Shown: positions 5,017-57,654, counted from the first letter of the stretch. The stretch is 58,657 nt of DNA from an uncultured Candidatus Saccharibacteria bacterium (GCA_964621395.1 CAZULS010000002.1:236252-294908); one strand, 5' to 3'. Translations and numbers: made by a program. The notes: generated by a model from the letters alone, not told the origin.

Positions 5017-5066
5017 GGCTTAAGTATAGCAGACAAACAAACGATAAACTATTAACTGTTGAACGA

Positions 5067-5097: not shown

Positions 5098-5139
5098 GTA
5101 AAAATAAGTTGTCATTCTGACCCCCGAGCCGGAATCTTA

Positions 5140-5191
5140 CAAAACCAAAGACTATCTTTGGTATGTATACCAAAGATAGTCTTTGGTTTTG
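5140..5191. repeat. P52 compound palindrome, copy 1
   Basis: CAAAACCAAAGACTATCTTTGGTAT-GT-ATACCAAAGATAGTCTTTGGTTTTG. Confidence 0.9.
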
Positions 5192-11702: not shown

Positions 11703-11718
11703 AGTGGAAAGTAATATG

Positions 11719-11861
11719 CTGTCACCAAGCACCAAACTTATGACTGAGATGGCACAGAGAACATTAAGAAGTAAAATCACTGAGGATGACATACCAGATT
11801 TCCAAACACATAGGTTTGGTGCTCAGTCTCGAGCGAGTTGTTTCGGAAAGTGGATTGCGGA
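11719..11861 (+). repeat. M140 module, copy a
   Basis: CTGTCACCAAGCACCAAAC..CATAGGTTTGGTGCTC..GTTTCGGAAAGTGGATTGCGGA. Other copies at 14399, 35023 and 56500. Confidence 0.8.
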
Positions 11862-11913
11862 CAAAACCAAAGACTATCTTTGGTATACATACCAAAGATA
11901 GTCTTTGGTTTTG
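11862..11913. repeat. P52 compound palindrome, copy 2 (centre AC)
   Basis: Same 24-bp arms as copy 1. Confidence 0.9.
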
Positions 11914-12029
11914 CAAGATCCCGCATTCCAGCCCCACATTTATGATTCTGAAAAGTCTATGGTACTCACCAGTAGTATTACTGCTGAGTTGGGCATGTAC
12001 ATTCTCGTGCTCACCAATGTGGGGTTGGA

Positions 12030-14346: not shown

Positions 14347-14398
14347 CAAAACCAAAGACTATCTTTGGTATACATACCAAAGATAGTCTTTGGTTTTG
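14347..14398. repeat. P52 compound palindrome, copy 3 (centre AC)
   Basis: Same arms as the other P52 copies. Confidence 0.9.
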
Positions 14399-14535
14399 TT
14401 CCACTTTCCGAAACAACTCGCTCGAGACTGAGCACCAAACCTATGTGTTTGGAAATCTGGTATGTCATCCTCAGTGATTTTACTTCTTAACGTCCTCTGT
14501 GCCATCTCAGTCATAAGTTTAGTGCTTGGTGACAG
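14399..14535 (-). repeat. M140 module, copy b
   Basis: Reverse complement of the 11719-11861 family. Confidence 0.8.
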
Positions 14536-23861: not shown

Positions 23862-24191
23862 TCATTTCATTTTCTGTAACGCCGACTGTACCGCCTCAAC
23901 ACCATACACTTCTGTGACTCTGCTCAGTGCTTCGCGAACAGGATTACCTTCAAACATAAATTCCAGCGAAACACCGGCTATTTCCGTGGCATCAAGCAAT
24001 ACTTCTAATTTTGGATACTTTTTCCCTAATTCGACCAGGGAGACATAATTTCGACTCACTCCGAGTTTATCTGCAAACTCTTCTTGAGAAAGGCAGGTCT
24101 TGTCCCTGGCAGCCTTGAAATTCATGCCCACGATTCGCATCATGGTCTCGTGGTCCACAAGTAGCTTTTTATCCTCTTTCATAATGAACAT
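23862..24191 (-). CDS. XRE-family helix-turn-helix regulator
   Basis: LSQEEFADKLGVSRNYVSLVELGKKYP. Confidence 0.75.
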   Translation of the reverse strand: MFIMKEDKKLLVDHETMMRIVGMNFKAARDKTCLSQEEFADKLGVSRNYVSLVELGKKYPKLEVLLDATEIAGVSLEFMFEGNPVREALSRVTEVYGVEAVQSALQKMK

Positions 24192-24295
24192 GTTAGTGTG
24201 TTATCGAAGTTCTTTATTCTTGTTATCATAAGTAAGATTGTTTGTAAAGCAAATCAAATCAAAAATTCCGCTTGCGCGGAATTTTTGATGTTTTG

Positions 24296-25016
24296 AAGGA
24301 CCATGTCTGTAAGCCGAATTCTGTACGCGCTACGCGCGCGATAATGATTTATCTGGGATGTGTGTTGCCACACACCTCAATGCGGCACTCCGAGCACCAC
24401 TTTTGGTAAAAAATCTTTTTCACCAAAAGTGGTGCTCAGCACGGCCTTGCACACAGGTAAGGATTTAGCCGTTTCACTAAAACATTCGCTTGCGAATGTT
24501 CGTGCGAACATCATGCGCTTCTGCATGATGTTTTAGCACCCGCGTTACCACGGTACTAACCCTGCTCTCCTGAAAAAGAAAAACCGGGTTTCGATTCCTT
24601 TCGGAATACGACGTCTCTGCTCGCACCTCTATAGCCCCTTCAAGCTACCGACGGGCGTTACCCGCTACCCTTTTCCGACACCACTTTCATGTACTTGCTC
24701 TTTAAGAGCCTGTTCATAATCTCATGTCGTGCGTAATGCATCATATACCGAGCGAAAATCGTGAAAAATGACGAAGGAGTACTCTCGTACTTCAAGGCAT
24801 TTTGAGCGATTTGCAGCCGGTATATGATGTGTTAAGCCGACAAGGATATATTGTTCTTCATTCAATGCCGTTGAGATTATGAACAGGCTCTAAGGACGAA
24901 TAACCAACATGCTCGGTATCGCCCCTTCTCTCTGCAACTCCACAAAAGTGGTGTCGGATGTGTTCGGACTTTCCTCTAATGTTTCAAGAAACATCAGCCA
25001 TTACCCAACATGGCGT
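24296..25016 (-). ncRNA. rnpB: RNase P RNA, about 720 nt, expanded by repeat insertions
   Basis: The minus strand carries GAGGAAAGTCCGAACAC (CR-I like, ~24962-24978) and ACAGAATTCGGCTTAC (CR-V like, ~24309-24324), plus GGGTAACGCCCGT. P1-like CCATGT/ACATGG ends are present. A terminator hairpin lies at 24261-24286. Confidence 0.85.
24705..24891 (+). mobile_element. R185 TIR element inserted inside rnpB
   Basis: 20-bp terminal inverted repeats AGAGCCTGTTCATAATCTCA / TGAGATTATGAACAGGCTCT. A near-identical copy lies at 38879-39060. Confidence 0.8.
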
Positions 25017-25075
25017 ACAAAGCATTATATCACAATGTAACAATATGTCAAAAGAAAAAAGCGGGTACTCCCGCT

Positions 25076-25378
25076 TTATTTGAACACGGCCTTTGGAAAA
25101 ACAATATTTGTCGCTTTTACCACCACGTCTTCAGTCCATGCCATACCCTCTAAGGTCCACCCTGCAATATAAGTTATCCCCAGGAGAACATAAAATAGCG
25201 GAATTGCAATGATGTTTGGCAGGAACTTTTTAAAGATAAGGCGTGGAAAACTCATTTCTCTCACTCTTCCTCCCTCAAAGAAGAAGGCGACCTGGGCAAT
25301 AAACCCTTTCTTTTTCAAAGTTATTTTCATATCGTCCTGATTTAGGTTCGAAAAAATACTGCTTTCTTGAGTATACAT
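25076..25378 (-). CDS. hypothetical membrane protein
   Basis: 100-aa ORF with a TM helix. The terminator hairpin GCGGGTACTCCCGC lies just 3'. Confidence 0.45.
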   Translation of the reverse strand: MYTQESSIFSNLNQDDMKITLKKKGFIAQVAFFFEGGRVREMSFPRLIFKKFLPNIIAIPLFYVLLGITYIAGWTLEGMAWTEDVVVKATNIVFPKAVFK

Positions 25379-25399: not shown

Positions 25400-26668
25400 C
25401 TAAAGCCGTCTCAGAAACTCCCCTGCTATTCTGTATACATCTTGATACGTGTCTGCATTCATGAGCTTCATGCGGAGTTCTTTTGCTCCAGGGAATCCAC
25501 GGACGTATGCGGAATAGTGCTTTTTCATGATGGCGAAGTTTTTGTTTGGGTGCATTTTTTCATAGAGTTTCGTGTGCTCGGTGAGTGTTTCAAGAATTTC
25601 TTCTACACTGCATGTATGCTCACCCCGCACCACGAGGGGTGCGGGGTTCTCTTCGTGCATGCCGCGCTGCTCACGCGGTGTATGAAGGAATATCCAAGGA
25701 TTACCAAACACCGCGCGACCAATCATGATGCCGTCGGCGCCGGTCTCTTGTGCTTTGTGTATACCGTCGGAAATGTTCGTAACATCACCATTACCGATAA
25801 TGAGCGTATGAGGTGCGTATTCATTTCGCAGCTCCACTGTACGTGCAACTCGCTCCCAACGTGCCGGTACTTTCGACATATCCTTGCGCGTGCGGGCATG
25901 GATAGTCAACGCGGGAAGATTGAGTGAAAGAAGCTCGGGAATCCACTCTTCCAGTATATCTTTCGAGAAACCAATGCGCGTCTTCACCGACACCGGCGTA
26001 TCTTTTCCCGCCGCTTTTACTCCTTCGCGCACCGCTTCCACAATCTCCTTTGCGCGCTTGGGATCACGAATAAGATCGGCGCCGGCGCGCTGCTTGATAA
26101 TCGCCTCTTGAGGGCATCCCATATTGATATCGATGCCATTGAAATTAAGCTTCGCCACTTCGCGCGCACCGATACACATCGTCTCCGGATTACCCCCAAA
26201 AATCTGCGCGATAATCGGTCGTTGCTTTTTGGTATAGGCGAGGTCGGAAATGAGATGAGGTCGCCCTTCATCGCTCGCTAATCCGTCGCAAGCGACGAAT
26301 TCAGTCCACATGATGTCCGGTCCCCCGTGTTTTGTGCTCATCAACGAATCAAACCCTCTAAAAACAGGAAAAGGTAAGAAGGAATTTTTCATGAGCTCCG
26401 CTTGGCAGTCCTCGCATCGAATATTCGGCTGCGCCTCGTTACTCAAACACGCCGCACAGGAGTGCGCCGTATTTTCCGTAACATCGGCTCGCACGAATCT
26501 TCGCCACGAGAACAAGCCATTTTCAGAGGGTTCAATTCTACTTTTCCTCGCAATAATTTCACGGAAGGCATTGTCGGTGGCATCTGCCATCGGCGCAAGC
26601 GCAAAAAACGGCTTCTTTCCTCGAACCGTATCCCACACATTCTTTTCTTGTCGGTGAAAGGTGAACAT
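25400..26668 (-). CDS. dus: tRNA-dihydrouridine synthase carrying a ~70-aa repeat-derived insertion
   Basis: LAPMADATDNAFR, IDINMGCP and a TIM-barrel Dus pattern. The start was set at MFTFHRQEK (26668). The track ORF extension to 26893 runs through repeats. Confidence 0.88.
   Translation of the reverse strand: MFTFHRQEKNVWDTVRGKKPFFALAPMADATDNAFREIIARKSRIEPSENGLFSWRRFVRADVTENTAHSCAACLSNEAQPNIRCEDCQAELMKNSFLPFPVFRGFDSLMSTKHGGPDIMWTEFVACDGLASDEGRPHLISDLAYTKKQRPIIAQIFGGNPETMCIGAREVAKLNFNGIDINMGCPQEAIIKQRAGADLIRDPKRAKEIVEAVREGVKAAGKDTPVSVKTRIGFSKDILEEWIPELLSLNLPALTIHARTRKDMSKVPARWERVARTVELRNEYAPHTLIIGNGDVTNISDGIHKAQETGADGIMIGRAVFGNPWIFLHTPREQRGMHEENPAPLVVRGEHTCSVEEILETLTEHTKLYEKMHPNKNFAIMKKHYSAYVRGFPGAKELRMKLMNADTYQDVYRIAGEFLRRL
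26346..26538 (+). mobile_element. R200 TIR element, copy C, inside the dus reading frame
   Basis: DNA alignable to 32527-32721 and 41329-41524 (CTTGGCA..CTCGCA..ATATTCGGCTG..CATCGGCTCGCACGAAT..CACGAGAA.AAGCCATTT). Its own arms are GAATCAAACCCTCTAAAAA / TTTTCAGAGGGTTCAATTC. Confidence 0.75.
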
Positions 26669-30073: not shown

Positions 30074-30138
30074 AAGTAGATGTTCTGCCATAATTCTTAA
30101 CTCTTAATTCGTAATTCTATCCCTGCTATACTATACCC

Positions 30139-31017: not shown

Positions 31018-31034
31018 CGGATATATTTTTATCC

Positions 31035-31109
31035 GTCATCCCGCACTTGATGCGGGATCTCGAGAGAGTTGTTTCAAAAAGTAAGATCCCGCATCGAGTG
31101 CGGGATGAC
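31035..31109. repeat. convergent doublet of GTCAT hairpins (both CCCGCA class)
   Basis: GTCATCCCGCACTTGATGCGGGATC and, on the rc strand, GTCATCCCGCACTCGATGCGGGATC. Confidence 0.75.
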
Positions 31110-31150
31110 AATGGATAAGAGAAATACGAAAAACGAAACATGAAATACGT

Positions 31151-31187
31151 AAAAGCGGCGGCGGGATTTCAGCCCGCCGCCGCTTTT
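31151..31187 (-). terminator. hairpin terminator after hicA
   Basis: AAAAGCGGCGGCGGG-ATTTCA-CCCGCCGCCGCTTTT. Confidence 0.6.
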
Positions 31188-31201
31188 GCATGTTTATGTC
31201 T

Positions 31202-31405
31202 TTACACCTCAATTCCCGTATCATCCCAAATACGCTTCACAATCTTCGGATGAAGAATCTTCCCGGCATGAAACGGAACCGTCACTCGTATTCCATCATC
31301 GTTTTTATATATCTTGTGACTCCCACTTTGTCGCGCGAGAGAAAAACCGTTCTTCTCCAAGAGAGTAATCATCTCACGTGCTGTCATGCGAGGAAGTTTG
31401 GGCAT
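31202..31405 (-). CDS. hicA: HicA-family mRNA interferase toxin
   Basis: 67 aa. MTAREMITLLEKNGFSLARQSGSHKIY is typical of HicA. Confidence 0.85.
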   Translation of the reverse strand: MPKLPRMTAREMITLLEKNGFSLARQSGSHKIYKNDDGIRVTVPFHAGKILHPKIVKRIWDDTGIEV

Positions 31406-31407
31406 AT

Positions 31408-31638
31408 TTATACAGCAACTTCCACGAGAGACACACTCACATCTCCTTGCGCTTTCACTTCTTCTTTCGCCTCACGACGATCCTCAACATGAAGCGCAAT
31501 CACATCACGAATATTCTCCATCACCTCCTCATAAGTGTCCCCCTGAGCATAGCAACCCGAAAGAGCCGGACATGTTGCAATGTATCCGTCTGCATCGTGC
31601 TCCACCACAACCGACATATTGTAGAGCGTCTTTTTCAT
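31408..31638 (-). CDS. hicB: HicB-family antitoxin
   Basis: VVVEHDADGYIATCPALSGCYAQGDTYEEVMENI. The start was set at MKKTLYN. The gene ends 3 nt before hicA. Confidence 0.8.
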   Translation of the reverse strand: MKKTLYNMSVVVEHDADGYIATCPALSGCYAQGDTYEEVMENIRDVIALHVEDRREAKEEVKAQGDVSVSLVEVAV

Positions 31639-31706
31639 GCCTGTATGATACCACTGGATTAAAATACGCACAAGACACACAAAAACCCCGCTTTGCTGTG
31701 CGGGGT

Positions 31707-32333
31707 TTATTCGTATCGATCAAGGCTTTTAACGATTCTTGAAACCGTTTCTCCTGTCTTTGTCTTTTGATACGGACCAAGAAATGTCCACGCAACAACC
31801 TTTCTGTTATCCCCCTTCTCAATGAGAGTCAATAGCTTTGAGAGCCAATCTTCGTCGGAAGGAATCATCTGACCGTATGGAATCTCATCGAATGAATACC
31901 AGGTTGGTTTTTTCATCTCCTCACTGCCCTGTATTTCTTCTCTATTTAAAACCCAATCCCGAGCAACAAAAAAGTCAACACGACATGTCTTTTTTGTTCC
32001 ATCTTCTCGAGTATTTTCTGCAAAGACAATGGCTCTTTTTTCAAGATCATTAGGAGAGACGATAACGCTTCCGCCTGTTTCCTCTTTTACCTCACGAGCC
32101 GTTGCAATCTCAAGAGACTCTCCGTCATGAGGAGCTCCTCCGGGACCATTCCACGTTTCTTCTCCCATACGTCTATGCCCTTCGTCTTTACCCTTCCACA
32201 TGAGGAGGACTTGGTATTTTTGCAAAGAAGAATTGTGTGCAACAAGAAGACACACAACCGCCTGCCCAAGGACCTTATCTTTTGGAATATTTTTATCCAT
32301 ATCGTTGGTGATTTTAATTTTCGATTTCCTCAT
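31707..32333 (-). CDS. NUDIX hydrolase
   Basis: Nudix box GGAPHDGESLEIATAREVKEETGG. The start may instead be the internal Met at 32300. Confidence 0.75.
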   Translation of the reverse strand: MRKSKIKITNDMDKNIPKDKVLGQAVVCLLVAHNSSLQKYQVLLMWKGKDEGHRRMGEETWNGPGGAPHDGESLEIATAREVKEETGGSVIVSPNDLEKRAIVFAENTREDGTKKTCRVDFFVARDWVLNREEIQGSEEMKKPTWYSFDEIPYGQMIPSDEDWLSKLLTLIEKGDNRKVVAWTFLGPYQKTKTGETVSRIVKSLDRYE

Positions 32334-32526
32334 TCAAGACTACCAATTTCTCACTAAAATGCAATGGTGTGGGAGGCGGGACCGCAGGTCCCGCCTTCTT
32401 TTGAGGCGCGCGAAGCGCGCCTATTCTTTATTCTTAACTCTTAATTCATAATTCTATTCACTATCCCCATTTGCACAAAATACAAACATGGTGTACTAAT
32501 AGTGCCTATACGGAACCGAAAAGCCT

Positions 32527-32721
32527 AGAACCCATCTCACATTAAACCGCTAAAAATAACACTTTGCACTTCGTGTAGATGCTTGGCAATTCTCGCACTC
32601 TCTGTTCTGGCTGCGTCTCGTCGCTCAACCAGAGCGCACGAGAGTGCGGCACGGTTTCCGCGACTGCAACTCGCTCAGCGAGAGAGTGCGAGAATAAGCA
32701 ATTTAATGTGAGATGGGTTCT
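32527..32721 (+). mobile_element. R200 TIR element, copy A, 49 nt upstream of topA
   Basis: Arms AGAACCCATCTCACATTAAA / TTTAATGTGAGATGGGTTCT. An internal long imperfect palindrome has a central CGCAC-GAGA-GTGCG hairpin. Confidence 0.8.
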
Positions 32722-32770
32722 CATTATCGCACGCCAGAATCACATTCGTATTATTTGTAATTCGCATTCT

Positions 32771-35772: not shown

Positions 35773-35909
35773 GGTAACGTTGGGACAACGTTGTTCCAAC
35801 GTTGGGTGTTTCAAAAAGTGGATTACGGACAAAACCAAAGACTATCTTTGGTATGTATACCAAAGATAGTCTTTGGTTTTGAAAGATCCTGAATCAAGTT
35901 CAGGATGAC
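35773..35909. repeat. N35 module + P52 copy 4 (35830-35881) + GTCAT hairpin (35885-35909, rc)
   Basis: GGTAACGTTGGGACAACGTTGTTCCAACGTTGGG, then ..GTGGATTACGGA plus P52, then the rc of GTCATCCTGAACTTGATTCAGGATC. Confidence 0.8.
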
Positions 35910-36055
35910 AGATTATTATTTTTCGCAGGCGCGGCGAAGCCGCGCCTGACTAACAACTACCAACTAAAAACTAAAAACTTGTCTGTATAAGTCGAACACG
36001 TTAAATCCTCTCGATACTCGCAACTCGAAACTTCTTTTGGTATACTACCCTTACT

Positions 36056-38867: not shown

Positions 38868-38878
38868 GGTAGGCGGGA

Positions 38879-39060
38879 AGAGCCTGTTCATAATCTCATG
38901 CCGTGCGTAATGCATCATATACCGAGCGAAAGTCGTGAAAAGTGTCGATGGAGTACTATCGTACTTCGAGACGCTTTGAGCGATTTGCAGCCGGTATATG
39001 ATGCATTAAGCCGGCAAGTATTTATTCTTCTTTTTTACGTTGAGATTATGAACAGGCTCT
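38879..39060 (+). mobile_element. R185 TIR element, copy 2, 12 nt upstream of the parB start
   Basis: Same 20-bp TIRs and interior (CATCATATACCG..CGGTATATGATG) as 24705-24891. Confidence 0.8.
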
Positions 39061-41301: not shown

Positions 41302-41328
41302 AGTAGTGTATAATATTGACTAATATAT

Positions 41329-41524
41329 AGAACCCATCTCATATTAAACCGCCTAAGATAATACTTTTTACACTTCGTGTAAGAGCTTGGCAATTCTCGC
41401 ACCACATATTCGGCTGTGCCTTGTCTCTCAACCACACCGCACGAAAGTGCGGCACGGTCTCCGAGACATCGGCTCGCACGAATATGCGGCACGAGAATAA
41501 GCCATTTAATATGAGACGGGTTCT
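41329..41524 (+). mobile_element. R200 TIR element, copy B, between the divergent prx and miaA genes
   Basis: Arms AGAACCCATCTCATATTAAA / TTTAATATGAGACGGGTTCT, with a central CCGCAC-GAAA-GTGCGG hairpin. Confidence 0.8.
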
Positions 41525-41564
41525 AGGTCTCGTACGTTTTGAGACATCGCAAGTATACCACACT

Positions 41565-47972: not shown

Positions 47973-48218
47973 CTATACTCCAATTGTATTCTTGATCAAA
48001 TTAATGATACCGGCGACGGCAACCATGATGAACATGCCAACCAAACCCCAGGTGATGTGTTTCTTTCCATTTTCTCGTTCCGCGTCGTTACCGGAATAAA
48101 ATATATACCGTACGACGCCAAAAAGGAAAAGTACAAAACCGAGAGCAAATATCACGCCAATGACCGGATTGATAATATGCTCTACGATATTACCGATGAG
48201 GTTGTGGATTGCTTCCAT
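47973..48218 (-). CDS. TrbC/VirB2-like T4SS pilin-family small membrane protein (paralog 5)
   Basis: 81 aa with two TM helices flanking a charged loop (SGNDAERENGKK). Confidence 0.55.
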   Translation of the reverse strand: MEAIHNLIGNIVEHIINPVIGVIFALGFVLFLFGVVRYIFYSGNDAERENGKKHITWGLVGMFIMVAVAGIINLIKNTIGV

Positions 48219-48239
48219 GAGAAACGTACCAAATCACTA

Positions 48240-48629
48240 TTAATTTGACGGCCATCTATCGGCATCAGATGAGCCGGGAAGTCGTACCTCTGGAATCGGA
48301 GCAGTTCCTCCTCTATTGATGTCAAATGTTTCTGCAATTACACCAACAAGACCCCATACGGCAACCATAACAAAGAGTGTAATGATTCCGTAGATCATGA
48401 TAGTGCGTCCTTTTTCTTTGTCTTCATCTGCTTTTACAAGATACATTGCTAAACCGAAGAAGAAAATAACAACCGCCAAGGTAATCACAATCGGAATGAG
48501 CAAGTCAAGAATCCTCTTTACGACACCGAGGATGCTTATTGCCGAAGTTGCGGCAAGCACAACGCTCGGGAGAAGTGTCACTGCAAGCCCTACAATTGTG
48601 CCCTTAAATATAGACTGTTTCATAAACAT
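48240..48629 (-). CDS. TrbC/VirB2-like pilin-family protein (paralog 4)
   Basis: 129 aa with a signal-like N-terminus and two TM helices around KADEDKEKGR. Confidence 0.55.
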   Translation of the reverse strand: MFMKQSIFKGTIVGLAVTLLPSVVLAATSAISILGVVKRILDLLIPIVITLAVVIFFFGLAMYLVKADEDKEKGRTIMIYGIITLFVMVAVWGLVGVIAETFDINRGGTAPIPEVRLPGSSDADRWPSN

Positions 48630-48734
48630 ACGTGAATAAAAAATAAATAAATATTGATCCCAAAAGGATTATTCTCTAATAATACCGCAACGCGTCTCTA
48701 CTGACAATATGCGTGTGGACAGCATGGTGGCCCG

Positions 48735-49106
48735 TTATATATCAGAATAAATGCTTTCAATGATACCGCTATCGACGGTTGCATTTCCTTCCGTGCCAAA
48801 AATCGTTTGATGAGCCACTGCCATAAGCCCCCAGATAGCAACAATGACGAAAAGGGAAATAATGCCGTACGCCATAATTTTCCCTCCCTCAGCATATTTC
48901 TTAGTATCTCCTGCCGAAAACAATGTTTGTACCAGTCCGATAAGAAATGCTGCCAGAGCTGCGGTGATGAGTATCGGAACTACAATATCGGTCACACGTA
49001 TAATATTGTTCATGAGATCGCCAAACGTTCGAGGAGCAGCAAAGGCGATTATCGGCACACCGAATACGGAAGCGAATATAAGAGATGTGTGATACAGAAA
49101 TTTCAT
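48735..49106 (-). CDS. TrbC/VirB2-like pilin-family protein (paralog 3)
   Basis: 123 aa with the same architecture (SAGDTKKYAEGGK loop). Confidence 0.55.
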   Translation of the reverse strand: MKFLYHTSLIFASVFGVPIIAFAAPRTFGDLMNNIIRVTDIVVPILITAALAAFLIGLVQTLFSAGDTKKYAEGGKIMAYGIISLFVIVAIWGLMAVAHQTIFGTEGNATVDSGIIESIYSDI

Positions 49107-49126
49107 ATGCTAATCTAATGCTAGAA

Positions 49127-49441
49127 CTAAATACCTGCTCCTACCTGCTCAACTGTTGCCCGAAGAAGCTCAGCGATTGCAAGCGCGCCGAGGAGAATGG
49201 CTCCGCCGATGATTGTCCAGGTAAATGCCGTCCGTGCATCTTTAATTTTATCAGGATTCCCCTGGGCACTAATAAAGAGAAAGCCGGTATAAATAATTGC
49301 CAAAACAAGCACGGGAAATCCCACGGCAATGACAACGCGCAGAATCGCAACAATAAGCTCGGGGAGTGTGTCGATGCCACCAAGCGGGTTTGTTAATTTT
49401 TCTGTCACCGCATGTGCAACGGGTATAATGTGATGAAGCAT
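49127..49441 (-). CDS. TrbC/VirB2-like pilin-family protein (paralog 2)
   Basis: 104 aa with the same architecture (SAQGNPDKIKDAR loop). Confidence 0.6.
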   Translation of the reverse strand: MLHHIIPVAHAVTEKLTNPLGGIDTLPELIVAILRVVIAVGFPVLVLAIIYTGFLFISAQGNPDKIKDARTAFTWTIIGGAILLGALAIAELLRATVEQVGAGI

Positions 49442-49462
49442 ATAAAATATATGAAAAAATAA

Positions 49463-49846
49463 TTAACGACTTAAGAACCAAAAGTCGGCGCCCACACCAA
49501 GCCCGCTCATAATTGCGAACACAACCAACCAGGCCGCCAAGACAAGTACCAAGCCCAATGCGGCATATCCGAAGACCGTATGTGCTTTTTGGATACGACT
49601 TGGGTTTCCTCCTGCAGTGATATATAGGATACCTCCCCAAGCAAACAGCGCGGCAGCAACAAACGCAACAGTGTATGAGAAGAATCTGAGAATATTTCGT
49701 ACGAGAACAATGAGCTGATCAACATCACAATCAGGGCCATCACAGGGAATAAGGCCCCCTGCTGCATGAATCACAAAAGGAGAGACGAACATCAATACGC
49801 CGAGAAAATAAATACCAACTGTGTAGAAAGGATGTGTATTCATCAT
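49463..49846 (-). CDS. TrbC/VirB2-like pilin-family protein (paralog 1)
   Basis: 127 aa with the same architecture (TAGGNPSRIQKAH loop). Its start overlaps the stop of the upstream gene. Confidence 0.6.
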   Translation of the reverse strand: MMNTHPFYTVGIYFLGVLMFVSPFVIHAAGGLIPCDGPDCDVDQLIVLVRNILRFFSYTVAFVAAALFAWGGILYITAGGNPSRIQKAHTVFGYAALGLVLVLAAWLVVFAIMSGLGVGADFWFLSR

Positions 49847-56376: not shown

Positions 56377-56444
56377 GTCATCCTGTACTCTTTGTCGAGC
56401 ACTTTTTTCACTTTAGTGAAAATGGTGCTTGGTGATGCGGGATC
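56377..56444 (+). repeat. R68 repeat copy
   Basis: GTCATCCTGTAC..GAGCACTTTTTTCACTTTAGTGAAAATGGTGCTTGGTGATGCGGGATC. Confidence 0.75.
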
Positions 56445-56447
56445 TTA

Positions 56448-56499
56448 CAAAACCAAAGACTATCTTTGGTATGCATACCAAAGATAGTCTTTGGTTTTG
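56448..56499. repeat. P52 compound palindrome, copy 5 (centre GC)
   Basis: Same arms as the other P52 copies. Confidence 0.9.
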
Positions 56500-56642
56500 T
56501 TCGCAATCCACTTTTCGGAACGATTCTTTCGAGACCGAGCACCAAACCTATGTGTTTAGAAATCAGATATGTCATCCTCAGTGATGTTACTTCTTAACCT
56601 CCTCCGCGCCATCTTAGTCATACGTTTGGTGCTTGGTGACAG
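56500..56642 (-). repeat. M140 module, copy d
   Basis: The rc aligns to 11719-11861. Confidence 0.8.
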
Positions 56643-56681
56643 CGTAGCTGTCTTTATCGTTCATCGTTTATAGTTTACCGC

Positions 56682-56710: not shown

Positions 56711-57337
56711 CTTACTCGCCTTGAGCACAATCACCTCCCCTTCCATAGCGCTCACATCTTTTTTCTTGAGTGTTGCTTTCTCCACCGCCTTCACCCCTTC
56801 AGCACCGGCTTCTTTGAGAAAGGTCTTCAGCATTGCCGCATCGGTATCGACGGGAATAATTACACTGGCGCCGAGCTTGGTAGCAAGCTTGTGTGCAGCA
56901 TTCGGCGCAAGAAGATCACCGTCACCCACAGGTGTAATCAAAATATCCACATCCTCACCAATTCCCTCATATACTTCCGGTGAAAGCTCGTTGGAGGAAA
57001 GTGCGCCCAAGACAACCACATTCATCTGCTCAAGTGAGATGCGATATACGGTGTTGATGTATGAATCTTTGCTGAGCTTTGTTTCAGACGGCATCCCCTT
57101 CACATACACACCGCTCACTTCATACTCCCCCGGACCGGAAATCACAAACGGCTCTTTATCGCCGTAGCGCACACTGTCCACGCCGTTGTAATCGGGATGC
57201 GGCACCGACGAAAGCGCCACATCAGCGCCAAAACGAGCACCGGAAAGCTTGGAATCTTTGCTGATGGGATTCACCGCGATAACCGTATCGCCAAGCTGAA
57301 TACGAATAAACTGTTTGTCGTAATATGTGATAATCAT
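56705..57337 (-). CDS. MBL-fold (UPF0173-like) hydrolase
   Basis: The N-terminal MIITYYDKQFIRIQLGDTVIAVNP pattern. The metal-binding motif looks degenerate. Confidence 0.5.
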   Translation of the reverse strand: MIITYYDKQFIRIQLGDTVIAVNPISKDSKLSGARFGADVALSSVPHPDYNGVDSVRYGDKEPFVISGPGEYEVSGVYVKGMPSETKLSKDSYINTVYRISLEQMNVVVLGALSSNELSPEVYEGIGEDVDILITPVGDGDLLAPNAAHKLATKLGASVIIPVDTDAAMLKTFLKEAGAEGVKAVEKATLKKKDVSAMEGEVIVLKASKA

Positions 57338-57341
57338 GATG

Positions 57342-57529
57342 AGAACCTGGCTCAGTAAAAATGGCTTGCTCTCGTGTTCGTCATTCGTGCGAGACGCTGG
57401 CGCGGAGTGCGAAGCGTATTACAATACGGTGAGCGCGAGTGGCAAGTCGCAGCCGAATGGCGGACGCGAGAGTTGCCAAATGAAACCATAGATTATGTAT
57501 ATAAATGTTTTTTACTGATGCCAGGTTCT
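57342..57529 (-). mobile_element. R200 TIR element, copy D, 4 nt upstream of the 57337 start
   Basis: The rc has arms AGAACCTGGCATCAGTAAAAA / TTTTTACTGAGCCAGGTTCT and a shared interior (TTGGCAACTCTCGC..ATTCGGCTG..CTCGCACGAAT..CACGAGAGCAAGCCATTT). Confidence 0.7.
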
Positions 57530-57536
57530 AGTATAT

Positions 57537-57580
57537 CACACCGCGGATTTTGTGCATGCATGCACAAAATCCGCGGTGTG
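57537..57580. repeat. 44-bp perfect palindrome
   Basis: CACACCGCGGATTTTGTGCATG/CATGCACAAAATCCGCGGTGTG. Confidence 0.85.
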
Positions 57581-57654
57581 ATTAGGAGATTAGTAAATTA
57601 GGAGACTAGGAGATTAAAGAATAAGAATCTGAACCGTTTTTCAAAACATAACGC

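Follow-up and report, generated by a model that had tools for sequence, protein, structure and literature searches.

R200, a probable new family of hairpin-forming, non-autonomous mobile repeats in a genome of likely Kaiserbacteria affinity

Introduction

Known repeat families of the MITE type have dispersed copies, strain polymorphism, in-frame intragenic copies, positions at gene starts and compensated RNA hairpins (PMC10969869, PMC3184786, PMC2759123). The Rickettsia palindromic elements (RPE; Ogata et al. 2000; reviewed in PMC10969869, PMC3184786) are small palindromic repeats of reduced genomes that lie both between genes and in frame within housekeeping ORFs, and R200, the repeat described here, does the same. 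In both, a copy within an ORF adds a peptide segment and leaves the frame intact, and the intragenic R200 copy likewise occupies a permissive site. For neither is a cognate transposase known, and the target duplications of both are poorly defined. R200 differs from RPE in its host (CPR versus the Alphaproteobacteria), in its greater length (182-218 versus about 105-150 bp) and in that only one of the six copies analysed here lies within an ORF, with no conserved element-encoded peptide.

In enterobacteria, the imperfect palindromes ERIC (IRU, RU-1) and YPAL (RU-2), 127-168 bp long, adjoin genes in transcribed regions and, like R200, they fold into a long RNA hairpin, have occasional intragenic copies with open frames (PMC2759123) and vary in presence or absence between strains. 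ERIC-type elements have orientation-dependent effects on mRNA through RNases (PMC10969869). The sequences of R200 and ERIC are unrelated and their hosts differ; in addition, the arms of R200 differ, with compensation, from one subfamily to the other, and ERIC has a single consensus. The bcr1 repeat of the Bacillus cereus group is a mobile repeat of ~155 bp that is unevenly distributed between close strains, as is R200 (PMC3184786). It is transcribed, and compensatory changes keep its double-stranded RNA structure (PMC3184786) as they keep the rod of R200. Unlike R200, bcr1 is flanked by clear 5-bp direct repeats where it has inserted, and the two sequences are unrelated. Correia elements (CREE) of Neisseria share with R200 a boundary of terminal inverted repeats, a length of about 100-200 bp and a frequent position directly upstream of genes. 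Their hairpins are cut by RNase III in transcripts, and they can carry promoters (PMC10969869). Correia elements also have a TA duplication, an IHF site and defined outward promoters, none of which is established for R200.

Two other kinds of hairpin repeat differ from R200 in form. Integron attC sites have the core RYYYAAC...GTTRRRY, are 57-141 bp long and stand in cassette arrays next to intI, whereas R200 has arms of the form (T)AGAACC...GGTTCT(A/C), is ~190 bp long, solitary and dispersed, and has no integrase in the stretch of host DNA analysed. REP/BIME and IS200/IS605-derived PATE are palindromes of 20-40 nt with a GTAG/CGTC tag, or subterminal hairpins without terminal inverted repeats, unlike the ~190-nt rod of R200 with its true terminal inverted repeats. 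All of these comparisons are by described behaviour, and membership of a named family (RPE, ERIC, bcr1, Correia) is not claimed. Full-text literature searches found no published description of MITE-type elements in CPR/Patescibacteria. Here, we describe R200 and propose that it is probably a new family of non-autonomous, hairpin-forming mobile palindromic repeats of the MITE type, similar to RPE, ERIC and bcr1.

Results

The sequence examined comprised ~59 kb of the R200 host genome and ~60 kb of close relatives. The genes of the window (the whole 58.7-kb stretch of host DNA that was analysed) are housekeeping only, as judged by Pfam, and 21% of it is non-coding. For TopA, Dus and a solute-binding protein, the best named relatives are in Parcubacteria/Paceibacteria (Kaiserbacteria and Yonathbacteria MAGs) at 50-70% identity, and by these relatives the host is most likely a Kaiserbacteria-like, ultra-small CPR (Patescibacteria) bacterium. 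An SD-like tetramer precedes only 2 of the 52 genes in the window, and in many genes an extended -10 box of the TGnTATACT/TATAAT type ends 6-9 nt before the ATG (for example 5023-5031, 30124-30132, 36038-36046 and 57530-57538). The organism appears to have mostly leaderless mRNAs and SD-independent translation. Other palindromic repeat families, separate from R200 and including REP-like ones, also occur in the window (for example at 5139-5191, 11862-11913, 14347-14399, 35830-35881 and 56447-56500): a perfect 53-nt palindrome (CAAAACCAAAGACTATCTTTGGTAT...) in five copies, composite repeat units of 120-212 nt (11715-11926 and 56435-56646) and ~15 REP-like hairpins of the GTCATCCCGCACTTGATGCGGGATC type. 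Five small T4SS_pilin (PF18895) genes lie in tandem at 47973-49846, adjoining a solute-binding protein gene.

There are six R200 copies (A-F) in the window, and a seventh, diverged copy in a Kaiserbacteria MAG. Copy A (32527-32721, plus strand) lies between a NUDIX gene (start 32333, minus strand) and topA (ATG 32771), and copy B (41329-41524, plus) between the start of a peroxiredoxin gene, prx (41301, minus), and the ATG of miaA (41565). Copy C (26342-26536, plus; palindrome proper 26351-26533) is an in-frame insertion of 195 nt in the minus-strand gene dus, and copy D (57342-57529, minus) precedes the ATG (57337) of a Lactamase_B_3 (MBL-fold) gene. A sequence-only reading of the window had listed these four copies, and both their positions and their distances to topA (49 nt), miaA (40 nt) and the MBL-fold gene (4 nt) were correct. 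The four are real but the count was incomplete, since a covariance model built from copies A-D found two more. Copy E (38879-39060, minus; 85 bits) is 11 nt upstream of the minus-strand parB ATG (38867), and copy F (24705-24891, minus; 71 bits) is in a peripheral hairpin of rnpB. Unfiltered matches of this model at ≤34 bits were rejected as generic palindromes of other families.

Copies E and F form subfamily 2, with 87% identity between the two and 38-50% to copies A-D. Their arms (AGAGCCTGTTCATAATCTCA) are unlike those of subfamily 1 in sequence, yet fully complementary to each other. E and F share with A-D both the architecture (arm, one-sided AT-rich unpaired stretch, long interrupted helices, apical hairpin) and the internal motifs CG-N-GCGA ... 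GCAGCCG. Exactly four places in the window (A-D) match a core motif, TTGGCA-N3-CTCGC-N8-TTC-(N)-GGCTG, which none of 100 shuffles contains. In copy A, which belongs to subfamily 1, arms of 20 nt each (AGAACCCATCTCACATTAAA and TTTAATGTGAGATGGGTTCT) bound an element that is, as a whole, a 195-nt imperfect palindrome. Arm complementarity is 20/20 in A, E and F and 19/20 in B, with one bulge in D and arms of ~13 bp in C, in agreement with the earlier statement that the arms differ between copies but match within each. The arms start with AGARCC in five copies and with AAACCC/TGAACC in C, and the polarity of the element comes from one AT-rich unpaired stretch of ~40 nt beside one arm. Dispersed copies within one genome, terminal inverted repeats (~13-20 bp), a small size (182-218 bp) and the lack of a transposase of its own, with only short or stop-interrupted frames in six-frame translation, are all features that R200 has in common with MITEs.

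Every copy folds into a single long rod (as RNA, -97.8 and -87 kcal/mol for A and B; z = -10 and -11 versus shuffled sequences), which bears out the long imperfect palindrome that had been read in the interior. RNAalifold on copies A-D gave 67 pairs, 26 of them with compensatory double changes. In an alignment of eight sequences (the six window copies and two orthologs), the counts of which lean towards structure because it was fitted to the model and includes two orthologous pairs, 95.3% of cells are paired (standard pairs) versus 72% in column shuffles and 34-42% with slid partners, and 48 of the 67 pairs have changes on both sides; none of 500 shuffles reached any of these measures. The covariation signal far exceeds the caveats of model fit and orthology, and strongly confirms that the rod is kept by compensatory substitutions. 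Thus, structure is indeed conserved while sequence drifts, as had been proposed. The GNRA tetraloop cap noted earlier is present in A and B, and also in F, but was rejected as a family feature, since only 3/6 copies have it (apical loops of A-F, in the orientation used in the sequence-only reading: GAGA, GAAA, AGGA, UGUA, GAUA and GAGA).

Contigs of relatives were reached via homolog searches with Dus and the solute-binding protein. A 318-kb TARA scaffold is syntenic with the window over ~19.5-57.7 kb at 80-92% nucleotide identity, and in the 42 kb examined it has one R200 copy versus five in the window. Site A is empty in this scaffold (L118), with the flank 95% identical up to 2 nt before the element. 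In L121, site B is empty and the entire prx-miaA spacer measures 46 nt versus 263 nt in the window. Copy C is present in L120 (193/195 nt identical) and site C is empty in L118, L127 and P0003-P0010; seven other Dus orthologs lack exactly the 65 residues IEPSEN...GFDSL. Copy D is present in the TARA scaffold (L121; 4 differences in 189 nt) and site D is empty in the more distant relative L123, and copy F is missing from L118. Each of A, B, C, D and F is therefore empty in at least one close relative, which is the insertion polymorphism typical of MITEs. Since close relatives have empty sites at these five loci, R200 is inserted DNA and not an ancestral leader, and the comparison of genome sequences shows that it is mobile.

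No consistent target-site duplication was seen at the sites compared with relatives. The flanks of B are TA/TA, with a single TA in the empty site; those of A and D are TA/TC, C has at most AT, and F is nested in other inserted DNA. Directly 3′ of copy B is a 27-nt hairpin (GGTCTCGTACGTTTTGAGAC..., 41525-41551), also missing from the relative's empty site, so either the insertion at B was composite or a second event came later. Two element-free Dus orthologs, P0002 (L118 10001-10999) and P0006, also lack MGKRGGG exactly at the insertion point, and this loss may be the footprint of an imprecise loss of R200. Other differences from the TARA relative are ~1.3 kb between dprA and topA (31024-32370), with the NUDIX gene (31707-32333), that is missing there (L118 5661-5789), and a large serine recombinase gene (L118 14171-15652) that is not in the window.

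Two copies lie within genes. The tRNA-dihydrouridine synthase gene dus (25400-26668, minus; Pfam PF01207, with alignments to 1vhn and to orthologs) is extended by copy C through exactly 65 in-frame codons between the first strand/helix motif and the next strand, in a loop between 'LAPMADATDNAFREI' and 'GGPDIMWTEF', and this frame is open in two genomes. In the alignment to the Thermotoga Dus structure 1vhn, the insert falls between 'LAPMAxxTDxAFRxL' and 'GxDxxxSEMV'. This is a helix-to-strand loop that, from general TIM-barrel geometry, presumably faces away from the active site. The insert peptide (26342-26536) has a zinc-ribbon-like four-cysteine pattern, CAAC-N12-CEDC, which is kept in L120 and which the other copies lack in that frame. 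Searching 5.8 billion proteins with a profile of the R200 open reading frame returned nothing, and therefore there is no conserved element-encoded peptide.

The RNase P RNA gene rnpB (class A-like; 24294-25016, minus) is split by ~265 nt, including copy F, which expand a peripheral hairpin after the GAGGAAAGUCC strand. As a result, it scores only 59.6 bits against RF00010, below the Rfam gathering threshold of 100 bits, and the uninterrupted rnpB of a relative (L118 11042-11527) scores 90.3 bits. In agreement, Rfam 15 at gathering thresholds returned only tRNAs from the whole window, and rnpB was returned by a permissive E-value search limited to 24150-25150, around copy F.

Copies A, B, D and E end 4-49 nt before start codons (gene identities at A, B and D by Pfam). 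Thus, 4/4 intergenic copies are <50 nt from a start, compared with 16.5% of intergenic positions (p ~7e-4, on an approximate gene map). The genes on either side of A and of B are divergent (NUDIX<-A->topA; peroxiredoxin<-B->miaA), and the prx start codon, in the opposite orientation, is only 27 nt (41302-41328) away from copy B. Upstream of copy B is a conserved, putative -10 for miaA (TATAAT, 41308-41313, plus) and on its other flank a putative -10 for prx (TGGTATACT, 41560-41552, minus). An extended -10 box (TGATATACT, 57538-57530, minus) stands directly before copy D, such that the MBL-fold gene begins TGATATACT-(copy D)-CATC-ATG in the window and TGTTATACT-N7-ATG in the empty relative L123. 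Copy E is 31 nt downstream of TGCTATAAT, and additional in-frame ATGs lie inside its arm at 38918 and 38891 (a ParB alignment was made). With promoters assigned from these motifs, B, D and E most probably lie in 5′ leaders, B in two of them and in opposite orientations. Around A, B and D, scans for sigma-70 promoters and for terminators gave results at the level of chance, and therefore no element-borne promoters are claimed. The topA, miaA and parB frames stay open into the R200 copy (32579-32770, 41421-41564 and 38868-38918), so that mechanical ORF calling adds spurious N-terminal extensions (787, 353 and 399 aa). Next to copy D, a perfect 44-nt palindrome (CACACCGCGGATTTTGTGCATGCATGCACAAAATCCGCGGTGTG, 57539-57582) has the same sequence in the TARA relative. 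Over its first 39 nt (57299-57337), the Lactamase_B_3 gene is identical in three genomes, third codon positions included, and the remainder of the gene has 14% third-position differences; the reverse complement of these 39 nt contains TGTGATAAT, a -10-like box pointing into copy D.

The sequence-only reading also held that the element keeps a constant orientation, with its GGTTCT end towards the start codon. The latter is true but automatic for a terminal inverted repeat, and therefore this end carries no orientation, which only the asymmetric interior defines. By the interior, the strand used in that reading (hereafter, the reference strand) runs in the same direction as topA, miaA, the MBL-fold gene, parB, rnpB and, in L126, GAPDH, and opposite to dus. 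The orientation rule holds at 6/7 loci, with B ambiguous; the bias is suggestive and falls short of significance (p ~0.13).

The strand opposite to the reference strand is the well-folding one. It is the more stable in 5/6 copies (minimum free energies, reference/opposite, in kcal/mol: B -87/-110, C -56/-84, D -69/-96, E -84/-104 and F -76/-93), with both strands of copy A equal. The difference arises because the wobble pairs lie on that strand: in the common structure of the six copies there are 35 G-U versus 2 A-C wobble cells, with G-U on the well-folding strand, and the bias is present both by pair column (24 versus 2, p = 1e-5) and by copy-specific case (17 versus 2, p = 7e-4). Two mutational causes were considered and rejected. 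A replication-strand mutation bias disagrees with the uniform GC skew of the window and the 3:3 split of the well-folding strand between chromosome strands. Transcription-coupled deamination predicts wobbles on the coding strand, and C and F, where the well-folding strand is sense (dus) and antisense (rnpB), respectively, are transcribed in opposite element orientations and have the same asymmetry. Because the asymmetry tracks the element, and neither the chromosome strand nor the direction of transcription, a mutation bias is unlikely, and one defined strand of R200 appears to be selected to fold, as RNA or as single-stranded DNA. The well-folding strand would be the non-transcribed strand at most loci, in which case tolerance at the RNA level alone cannot explain the asymmetry. 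The G-U asymmetry contradicts a simple reading of R200 as the leader of the downstream gene.

We compared divergence within and around the occupied sites. Between the window and the TARA scaffold, codon positions 1, 2 and 3 differ by 7.9%, 5.2% and 32.5%, alignable intergenic DNA by 11.5%, and tRNA and rnpB genes by 2.4%. Copy D differs by 2.1%, with four differences that are all transitions and all in stems, and the third positions of the adjacent MBL-fold gene differ by 13.9%. Similarly, copy C has 2 differences in 195 nt from its counterpart in L120 and 0/65 third positions changed, versus 24.8% third-position divergence in the rest of dus. Recent recombination as the cause of low divergence was rejected, since the density of mismatches in dus jumps from 0-1 within the element to 14 per 60 nt right at its edge. 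Fixed R200 copies are thus under nucleotide-level constraint, evolving about as slowly as tRNA and rnpB genes, with 1-2% divergence between orthologous copies versus 14-33% at third codon positions.

By Pfam, neither the window nor the relatives' loci that adjoin copies contain a transposase or recombinase. A scan for the R200 arms across 185,579 species genomes found no autonomous element and only another non-autonomous copy, near GAPDH in a Candidatus Kaiserbacteria MAG (L126 2824-3041; 42 bits); a cognate IS could still be carried by the unsampled rest of the host genome. One arm of the L126 copy is identical to that of copy A (20/20) and the other differs at 1/20, and the interior is longer and much diverged. 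Arms kept while the interior diverged in a distant MAG would fit recognition of the arms by a protein. Two core-motif scans of GTDB species genomes, JGI metagenomes and IMG/VR, collections that do not include the close relatives, gave chance matches only (nhmmer check), and exact look-ups of window proteins returned only a 1-kb Logan contig, which carries copy D.

Discussion

The empty sites, the dispersed copies and the anatomy of R200 all point to a mobile palindromic repeat, and we consider a MITE-type family probable. R200 would be moved in trans by an enzyme encoded elsewhere, which may recognise the arms and/or a folded single strand. In a transcribed place, a copy would do no harm, and be tolerated, only as long as it folds up into an independent rod of its own, which RNase III might trim, such that mutations that break the rod would be selected against. 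The places where R200 survives are before starts of the leaderless type, in the in-frame dus loop and in the peripheral rnpB hairpin. In addition, the G-U asymmetry may reflect a strand-specific folded intermediate in propagation. A purely selfish repeat should evolve neutrally at fixed loci and does not predict the constraint observed; therefore, either the assumption of a self-contained fold or a real host function is needed. For ERIC, too, Wilson and Sharp (2006) reportedly found an unusual degree of conservation of copies between species. Strand-specific wobble pairs and RNA-gene-like conservation set R200 beyond an ordinary MITE.

The sequence-only reading had offered two explanations, a folded leader RNA or hairpin-recognised mobile DNA. 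Mobility is shown by the empty sites at five loci. A functional, structured 5′ leader, in which the rod in the mRNAs of topA, miaA, the MBL-fold gene and parB controls translation or stability (e.g. through RNase III), is unlikely in our view, although several observations agree with it. At D, B and E the element separates a -10-like box from the start codon; compared with L123, the insertion at D turns a leaderless gene into a leadered one in a genome where SD motifs are rare (2/52 genes); in situ, copies are as conserved as RNA genes; compensatory changes maintain the rod; and at 6/7 loci one and the same strand runs in the direction of the adjacent or host gene. However, relatives at 80-92% identity have the same housekeeping genes without the element, and the flanking genes (topA, miaA/prx, MBL-fold, parB, GAPDH) are unrelated, with no stable gene association. 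Other copies are found within rnpB and, oppositely oriented, within the dus ORF, and B sits in the leaders of two divergent genes and hence in both orientations. The wobble-pair signature is on the antisense strand of the leaders, the orientation bias is not significant (6/7, p ~0.13), and no Rfam family matches R200 at gathering thresholds in the whole window. The leader reading is therefore partly supported: it is plausible for the position of R200 and fails as its defining function. That same wobble signature, usually taken as the mark of the transcribed strand of a structured RNA, could instead suggest small RNA genes on the well-folding strand, cis-antisense to the leaders of adjacent genes. 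RNA-gene-like conservation would agree, as would the boxes seen by eye just 5′ of the well-folding strand (TGnGATAAT-like at A and D, TGGTATACT at B). These promoter-like boxes are outside the element and not common to C, E and F, no terminator follows the rod in the scans around A, B and D, the copies within dus and rnpB cannot be genes in their own right, and Rfam at the same thresholds and scope is again without a match, so we regard independent small RNA genes as highly improbable.

A folded strand could also matter at the DNA level, as a single-stranded recombination or transposition substrate of a tyrosine, HUH or serine enzyme that cuts and joins it, much as integron attC bottom strands, IS200/IS605 ends and CTX-phage attP are processed. 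The strand tolerant of G-T/G-U is the same in every copy, regardless of gene direction or chromosome strand, clear target-site duplications are absent and the arms end ...AAC/GTT.... Against such a substrate, there is no integrase or transposase nearby and no cassette array, the arms differ from the RYYYAAC/GTTRRRY core sites of attC, and the 3:3 split of the well-folding strand with uniform GC skew gives no link to the lagging-strand template. The conservation of fixed copies would also remain unexplained, and we judge this reading very unlikely. Parts of these ideas combine in a further one that is speculative and, taken jointly, improbable: the host might have come to depend on R200 copies as mobile, self-insulating modules of RNA/DNA. 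RNase III would excise the rod between the -10 and the AUG (or the rod would be bypassed) to give a near-leaderless mRNA, each fixed copy would be under host-level selection to stay a rod, and spread would occur via a strand-specific folded single strand and a CPR enzyme. The MITE-type family remains the reading that we prefer.

Genomes of CPR/Patescibacteria are usually described as small and streamlined, and this window is packed with palindromic repeats, of which R200 is one family. For annotation, R200 accounts for an rnpB missed at Rfam thresholds, an over-long Dus and the spurious N-terminal extensions of topA, miaA and parB. Its copies are clean, datable insertions into a protein loop, a ribozyme gene and the promoter-to-start gap of leaderless genes. 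Thus, R200 is suited to asking how compact genomes tolerate or exploit hairpin repeats, whether RNase III processing may rescue leaderless translation after an insertion, and which strand and enzyme move such elements.
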